A stretch of 64,000 nucleotides of DNA from Escherichia coli (GTDB lineage: Bacteria > Pseudomonadota > Gammaproteobacteria > Enterobacterales > Enterobacteriaceae): NCBI RefSeq assembly GCF_003019035.1, contig NZ_CP027447.1; one strand, 5' to 3'. A program made the translations under genes and the position numbers. Numbering within the stretch: the stretch's first letter is position 1; the number at the start of each line of letters is the position of its first letter. Below are positions 63,491 to 63,633 of this stretch, piece after piece. Under the pieces are notes generated by a model. The model saw only the letters and a program-made list of their open reading frames with translations, was not told the origin of the DNA and made no database searches.

Positions 63491-63633
63491 AAATCGCGGA
63501 AGGGATGAAACAACAGCGCCTGACGGCGCTGTGTCTGGCATGCCTGCAATCCGGGAAACCGGACCAGGAAAAAACTTGCAGGCCATAACAGTATCTACGC
63601 AGTACCTGTAATATATTGAATCTGCAGGACTTT

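Follow-up and report, generated by a model that had tools for sequence, protein, structure and literature searches.

IS621, a bridge-RNA-guided insertion sequence of the IS110 family, is the closest described system to the locus examined here. Its promoter was described by Durrant et al. (2024, Nature; PMC11208160), where small-RNA sequencing placed the start of an RNA of ~177 nt at a sigma-70-like promoter. In the same study, deletion of the -35 box abolished supply of the bridge RNA in cis and halted recombination unless the bridge RNA was given in trans, and a 22-bp donor without the -35 recombined normally with bridge RNA in trans. Later papers (NAR 2025, PMC12288879; bioRxiv 10.64898/2026.03.19.712850) name this promoter Pjunc, with the -35 contributed by the right end and the -10 by the left, and with a transcript that carries the bridge RNA together with the mRNA of the transposase. 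Circles have been reported for IS110 members in the literature (including PMC11208160), and native promoters in relatives of IS621 have been found to be weak or even dominant. A 2026 preprint (bioRxiv 10.64898/2026.03.19.712850) has also proposed that the post-integration junctions insulate ISPpu10 from read-through.

The window analyzed here is a 64-kb stretch of E. coli DNA, near the end of which an initial annotation had proposed a split promoter that would form only when the two ends of an element are joined. Anatomy, exact ends, chance level and conservation were observed directly, and the feature is very probably the hybrid junction promoter (Pjunc) of IS621. The junction promoter is correct but already known, having been published for IS621 in 2024. 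Because the promoter halves and the spacer are identical to those of the published IS621, this is the same feature and not a new member or variant, and the window records one intact, typical IS621 copy in E. coli. Such a split promoter would raise the guide RNA and the recombinase on the excised circle and stay mostly quiet in the chromosome. It is also relevant to the engineering of bridge recombinases, since native promoter and donor site overlap.

The IS621 copy downstream of ybiT

The final 1.7 kb of the window contains a complete insertion sequence lying between ybiT and a DUF1479 gene. The element itself, the only IS621 copy in the window, is intact, spans 62318-63596 (1,279 bp) and has a REP sequence as its insertion site. 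It follows ybiT, which encodes an ABC-F ATPase (60638-62230), is co-oriented with the element and has its stop codon 87 nt before it. The same unit was found by megablast in 2,244 of the 5,426 complete E. coli genomes, where it is annotated as "IS110-like element IS621 family transposase", and the identity to these annotated copies is 99.9%. The two domains that define IS110 recombinases are PF01548 and PF02371, and the predicted protein has both (DEDD_Tnp_IS110, E = 1.7e-24; Transposase_20, E = 5.1e-26). It also passes the NCBIfam model NF033542 with 252 bits (cut-off 140) and shares 323 of 326 residues with the published IS621 protein, leaving three amino acid differences. With these domains, a scarless CT-flanked unit, a REP target and a bridge RNA, the element is a member of the IS110 family and of IS621.

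The ends could be placed to the base. Copies of the CT core lie at 62316-62317 (left) and 63595-63596 (right), and cutting out 62318-63596 recreates the empty REP site that E. coli FELIX_MS772 has between ybiT and ybiU, ...TATCAGGCCT|ACGCAGTACC..., with a single CT; the empty locus of this strain, which lacks the insertion, reads ...GCTTATCAGGCCTACGCAGTACCTG.... Because the flanks minus the element equal the empty site, the element is bounded by the CT copies and sited in the REP. There are no terminal inverted repeats, each end has one CT core, and the scarless insertion occurred at the known IS621 target in REP, ATCAGGCCT|AC. The left REP half folds as a hairpin of -17.1 kcal/mol. In the integrated form this hairpin is lengthened (62283-62320), with GCAAG pairing with the core and the first bases of the left end (CUUGU), at -17.1 kcal/mol. 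Between ybiT and the element, a terminator scan and folding gave the REP hairpin with no U-run after it, a result that speaks neither for nor against an intrinsic terminator in this interval. The REP copy of the right flank (63637-63678) gave an Rfam match to naRNA4 of 31 bits, below the gathering threshold of 59.5, and is ordinary REP/BIME sequence.

The left end aligns to the published 177-nt bridge RNA, the 5' end of which, left-end position 15, falls at 62332. The left end folds into the expected three stem-loops (-63.5 kcal/mol, z = -3.8), and the bridge-RNA loops carry a copy of the target (ATCGGGCCT) and a copy of the donor (ACAGTATC). No bridge-RNA family of Rfam 15 matched across 61500-64000, where only the sub-threshold, REP-like naRNA4 of the right flank was returned. 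Relative to the published left end, the changes are A to T at 62332, the RNA start; two substitutions and one inserted base at 62391-62398, the apical part of the target-binding loop; one change at 62416; and T to G at 62509, the last base before the ATG. The base at 62509 is also the sole difference from E. coli SCU-301, which is otherwise identical to the window over 4.1 kb.

In the right end, the GC-rich hairpin past the stop codon looks terminator-like on the minus strand only, as judged from its sequence. The left donor occurs once in the window, its 8-mer is repeated in the donor-binding loop of the left end, and it is kept in relatives. Further upstream, 63547-63566 holds CCGGGAAACCGGAC, and the 9-mer AAACCGGAC is common to it and to the stem of the donor-binding loop in the left end (62446-62480). 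Coordinates are collected in Table 1.

Table 1 Features of the IS621 copy and its junction promoter, in window coordinates
Feature	Coordinates	Strand	Remarks
Left half of REP target	62290..62317	+	Ends in ATCAGGCCT including the left CT core; empty site in E. coli FELIX_MS772 is GCCTGATGCGCTACGCTTATCAGGCCT|ACGCAG
Left non-coding end (LE)	62318..62509	+	192 nt, encodes the bridge RNA; 5 substitutions and 1 inserted base relative to the published 191-nt LE
-10 hexamer TATTAT	62320..62325	+	Contribution of the left end to the junction promoter; shares bases with the right-donor recognition sequence
Bridge RNA	62332..62509	+	5' stem-loop, target-binding loop, donor-binding loop; aligned to the published 177-nt bridge RNA
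IS621 recombinase gene	62510..63490	+	Intact ORF, 326 aa
Right non-coding end (RE)	63491..63596	+	106 nt including CT core; 1 substitution and 1 missing base relative to the published RE, both far from the promoter
GC-rich hairpin	63513..63532		ACAGCGCC-TGAC-GGCGCTGT, just past the recombinase stop codon
A6 tract	63569..63574	+	Immediately upstream of the -35 hexamer
-35 hexamer TTGCAG	63576..63581	+	Right-end half of the junction promoter; from sequence, weight matrix and conservation
Left-donor sequence	63588..63596	+	ACAGTATCT, ends in the right CT core (63595-63596); within the promoter spacer

Other E. coli genomes carry two rearranged forms. In strain E2865, and also in the O26 strains RM10386 and RM8426, the left flank of IS621 reads GCCTGATGCGCTACGCTTA-ACAGTATCT|TGTATTAT (positions 1585-1620 of the E2865 locus), such that the left donor of the element itself takes the place of the REP target ATCAGGCCT and a complete chromosomal donor site (LD-CT-RD) is present without a -35. 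A miniature IS621 of ~150 bp was seen in a REP of strain NWU_1 (positions 1604-1753 of that locus), one of 12 genomes with such matches. In it, ~78 nt from the start of the left end, covering the 5' stem-loop and one half of the target-binding loop, run straight into the final ~72 nt of the right end, and both promoter halves and both CT cores are retained. A junction running from right end to left end in a single piece was not found in any of the 5,426 complete E. coli assemblies; 12 "full-coverage" junction matches proved to be two pieces in left-to-right order, being miniature internal-deletion derivatives and not junctions. The lack of an assembled head-to-tail junction fits a transient intermediate.

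Anatomy of the junction promoter and supply from the integrated copy

The two hexamers that had been proposed as the promoter halves are present in the sequence, TTGCAG near the right terminus and, at the left terminus, TATTAT preceded by TG (62318-62319), and the predicted spacer of 17 nt was likewise recovered on joining. The abutted ends read TTGCAG-GCCATAACAGTATCTTG-TATTAT, a site aimed into the left end, toward the recombinase gene. The distance from TTGCAG to the CT core needed correction: it is 13 nt, and the 15 nt first given is the count to the last base of the element. Each half lies wholly in one end and a spacing of 16-18 nt is reached only when the ends abut, which is the geometry of a Pjunc. 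TTGCAG matches the -35 consensus at three of six positions. Six nucleotides separate TATTAT from the published 5' end of the RNA, so that the start lies 7 nt after the -10 hexamer.

The TG had also been counted as a promoter feature, and this did not stand. An extended -10 (TGnTATAAT) has its T at -15 and its G at -14. The TG here abuts TATTAT at -14/-13, one base out of that register, because the published RNA 5' end (left-end position 15) sets TATTAT at -12 to -7; the extended -10 was rejected for this reason. The TG belongs to the conserved 11-nt donor sequence. When this 11-nt donor was randomised in a library by Durrant et al. (PMC11208160), with both hexamers kept and the bridge RNA supplied in cis, the high-abundance donors sampled included some lacking the TG (for example, ...CTGT and ...CTGA).

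Using our own sigma-70 weight matrix, the junction site scored 10.8 bits and was the top site in the 340-nt junction, and the same -10 with the upstream sequence of the integrated form reached only 5.2-5.6 bits. Sixteen sites in the 64-kb window score at least 10.8 bits when both strands are counted (128,000 strand-positions). A straddling site this good arose by chance in 0.41% of 200,000 random joins of 31-mers from the window and in 0.74% of shuffled ends, a level that alone is suggestive and not decisive. The runner-up, TTGTAT-17-GAAAAT at 8.1 bits, occurs in the integrated and the joined form alike. A consensus scan of the linear region 62000-64000, requiring at least four of six matches per hexamer, detected no promoter-like site, at a threshold that would also reject TTGCAG. 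This rejection of the joined site by the consensus criteria, together with the T that replaces A at the published start (62332), counts against the Pjunc reading.

In the integrated element the -35 half in the right end and the -10 half in the left end lie ~1.26 kb apart, each pointing away from its partner. Once the recombinase has brought both termini together at the CT core, in a circle or in any head-to-tail junction, the halves would come to lie 17 nt apart, and RNA polymerase with sigma-70 would start ~7 nt after the -10 hexamer. The transcript would carry the 177-nt bridge RNA and the recombinase gene on the same RNA, such that both components would be raised on the molecule that is next to integrate. 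Since the spacer and the -10 hexamer double as the donor site read by the bridge RNA, one stretch of 30 bp serves both recombination and transcription. The activity of the present copy, and how much weaker expression would be in the integrated state, are predicted from sequence.

It had been suggested that strong guide-RNA expression would be confined to the circle. "Confined" can only be meant relatively, because excision first needs bridge RNA and recombinase from the integrated copy, because native promoters in relatives are weak or even dominant, and because this copy follows ybiT closely on the same strand. It is possible, though we doubt it, that Pjunc is real without being the main control, and that the integrated copy supplies most of both components by read-through from ybiT or from a weak internal promoter, with the circle providing a boost. 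Full-length bridge RNA and recombinase are needed before any circle exists, ybiT is co-oriented with its stop codon 87 nt upstream and a REP hairpin without a U-run in between, and the 8.1-bit site would be available in both forms. Against this, no promoter-like site of the linear region passed the scan, the partner available to the integrated -10 reaches 5.2-5.6 bits only, Pjunc is regarded in published work as the one promoter that IS621 has in the circle, and the post-integration junction of ISPpu10 is reported to act as a terminator (bioRxiv 10.64898/2026.03.19.712850).

Conservation of the two promoter halves

Scanning one genome per species returned 78 loci of relatives with 34-84% identity. 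Right ends were located independently of the promoter, through the 8-10-nt donor (ACAGTATCT in the present copy) that is repeated in the donor-binding loop of the element's own left end, and left ends through the conserved CT|TGTATT start. The conservation set comprised 41 loci, giving 35 distinct junctions at 45-84% protein identity. Eight loci for which both ends could not be assigned were left out of the counts (L007, L014, L033, L053, L059, L064, L067 and L068). Three of these (L064, L067 and L068) are Snodgrassella elements of 34-39% identity that have TTGAC close to where the right end was inferred, and in L059 the donor motif was absent. Six more loci, overlooked by the first filter, show the same two halves.

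Of the 35 distinct relatives, 34 have a TTG at a distance of exactly 17 nt from the -10 hexamer. The -35 letters T, T and G are kept in 35, 34 and 35 of the 35, respectively, and are followed by A or C. The -10 partner is TATT(A/G/T/C)T or TATGAT, such that five of the six letters (T, A, T, T and the last T) show little or no variation and position 5 varies; the other varying positions across the 35 junctions are -16 to -13 and -27 to -24 (bases upstream of -22). The joined ends of the relatives scored 13.1 ± 2.2 bits on average, versus 5.1 ± 1.9 bits for the integrated left junction, and the joined form was the higher in 31 of 32 insertion sites. There are two exceptions. One element (L050) has TGGCGC at the -35 position. 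In another (L006) the flank supplies GTGACC, which gives 9.6 bits in the integrated form; since this is a near-equivalent -35, circle-specificity is not absolute.

The conservation of the -10 is ambiguous because this hexamer overlaps the donor site. The -35 hexamer has no such overlap, and its offset is constant in three coding contexts. In IS621-like elements, with right ends of 102-116 nt, it is non-coding; in elements with a right end of 8 nt it lies in the reading frame (GCT TGC GTC GCA TAA); and in those with a right end of 17 nt it runs across the stop codon as T-TGA-C, within the last 25 nt of the element (loci L015-L058). In 25 distinct elements of this last kind, the protein may finish in A, S, C, V, T or G, but every final sense codon has T in its third position and TGA is the only stop used. 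Because the wobble T and the TGA are fixed while the last residue varies, the comparison points to selection on the DNA motif and not on the protein.

All six enterobacterial lineages whose -35 is the weaker TTGCNN (L003, L005, L006, L010, L012 and L030) have a tract of A4-A6 directly before that hexamer, and relatives with TTGACN have no such tract. The A6 tract of the present copy may act like an UP element. We lean, by a small degree, toward a history in which the -35 was maintained through overlap with the stop codon (T-TGA-C, with right ends of 8-17 nt in most relatives and the wobble T and TGA fixed), and in which the 106-nt right end of IS621 is derived, the stop having moved away and left the weaker TTGCAG, with the A-tract perhaps compensating in the manner of an UP element. 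Of these points, the overlap of the -35 with the stop codon and the A-tract before TTGCNN were checked by comparison between sequences, and the derived state of the long right end is presumed. All three are minor and possibly unreported.

Could the TTG(A/C) motif be kept for a reason other than transcription, such as a contact of the recombinase or bridge RNA outside the core donor or a constraint on the end of the reading frame, its likeness to a -35 being incidental? The motif does overlap the stop codon or the last codons in most relatives, and it adjoins the strongly conserved donor sequence. However, recombination does not need it, as the 22-bp donor without the -35 works with bridge RNA in trans (PMC11208160), the offset is the same across the three coding contexts, and the wobble T is fixed while the last amino acid varies; we therefore consider this explanation very improbable. 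A chance likeness, in which the joining brings two weak hexamers to a 17-nt spacing by accident, could draw on the three-of-six match of the -35 and on the abundance of sites with at least 8 of 12 matches in AT-containing DNA, but it has a negligible likelihood given the 0.4-0.7% frequency of straddling sites of such score, the published transcript and deletion data (PMC11208160) and the recurrence among distinct relatives (34 of 35, with protein identities as low as 45%), by which it is effectively refuted. That the joined ends form a sigma-70 promoter directed into the bridge RNA and recombinase, as first proposed, is supported both by Durrant et al. (2024) and by this conservation.

Comparison with known systems

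The published IS621 Pjunc (PMC11208160) and the present one are identical in sequence across both hexamers and the spacer, and the two elements have in common the CT core, the donor ACAGTATCTTG, the REP target ATCAGGCCTAC and a 177-nt bridge RNA encoded in the left end. The present copy differs in the T at 62332, in four changes in the apical target-binding loop, in having G and not T at 62509, and in three amino acids; none of the differences falls in either hexamer or in the spacer.

The Pjunc of ISPpu10 from Pseudomonas putida (PMC12288879; bioRxiv 10.64898/2026.03.19.712850) also belongs to an IS110-family element that inserts in REP sequences and has a CT core, and here too the right end supplies the -35 and the left end the -10. 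Reporter fusions showed this hybrid promoter to be strong, and RNA initiates there. The element and the host are different, the bridge RNA of ISPpu10 has no 5' stem-loop, and for ISPpu10 a native promoter that is weak has been demonstrated, as has a terminator at the integrated junction. Another IS110 member, ISPpu9, forms no hybrid promoter.

More distant relatives of IS621 follow the same scheme. For IS492 (IS110 family) and ISEc11 (IS1111 family), later papers describe a Pjunc in which the circle joins the -35 of one end to the -10 of the other, and place the guide RNA of IS1111-type elements downstream of the gene for the transposase. The logic is also alike in IS911, IS2, IS30 and IS21, which have DDE transposases and in which a transient strong promoter exists only at the abutted ends of a circle or tandem dimer. 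However, these elements use unrelated enzymes, carry terminal inverted repeats and a spacer of a few bp between the ends, and have no guide RNA, such that their junction promoter drives the transposase only.
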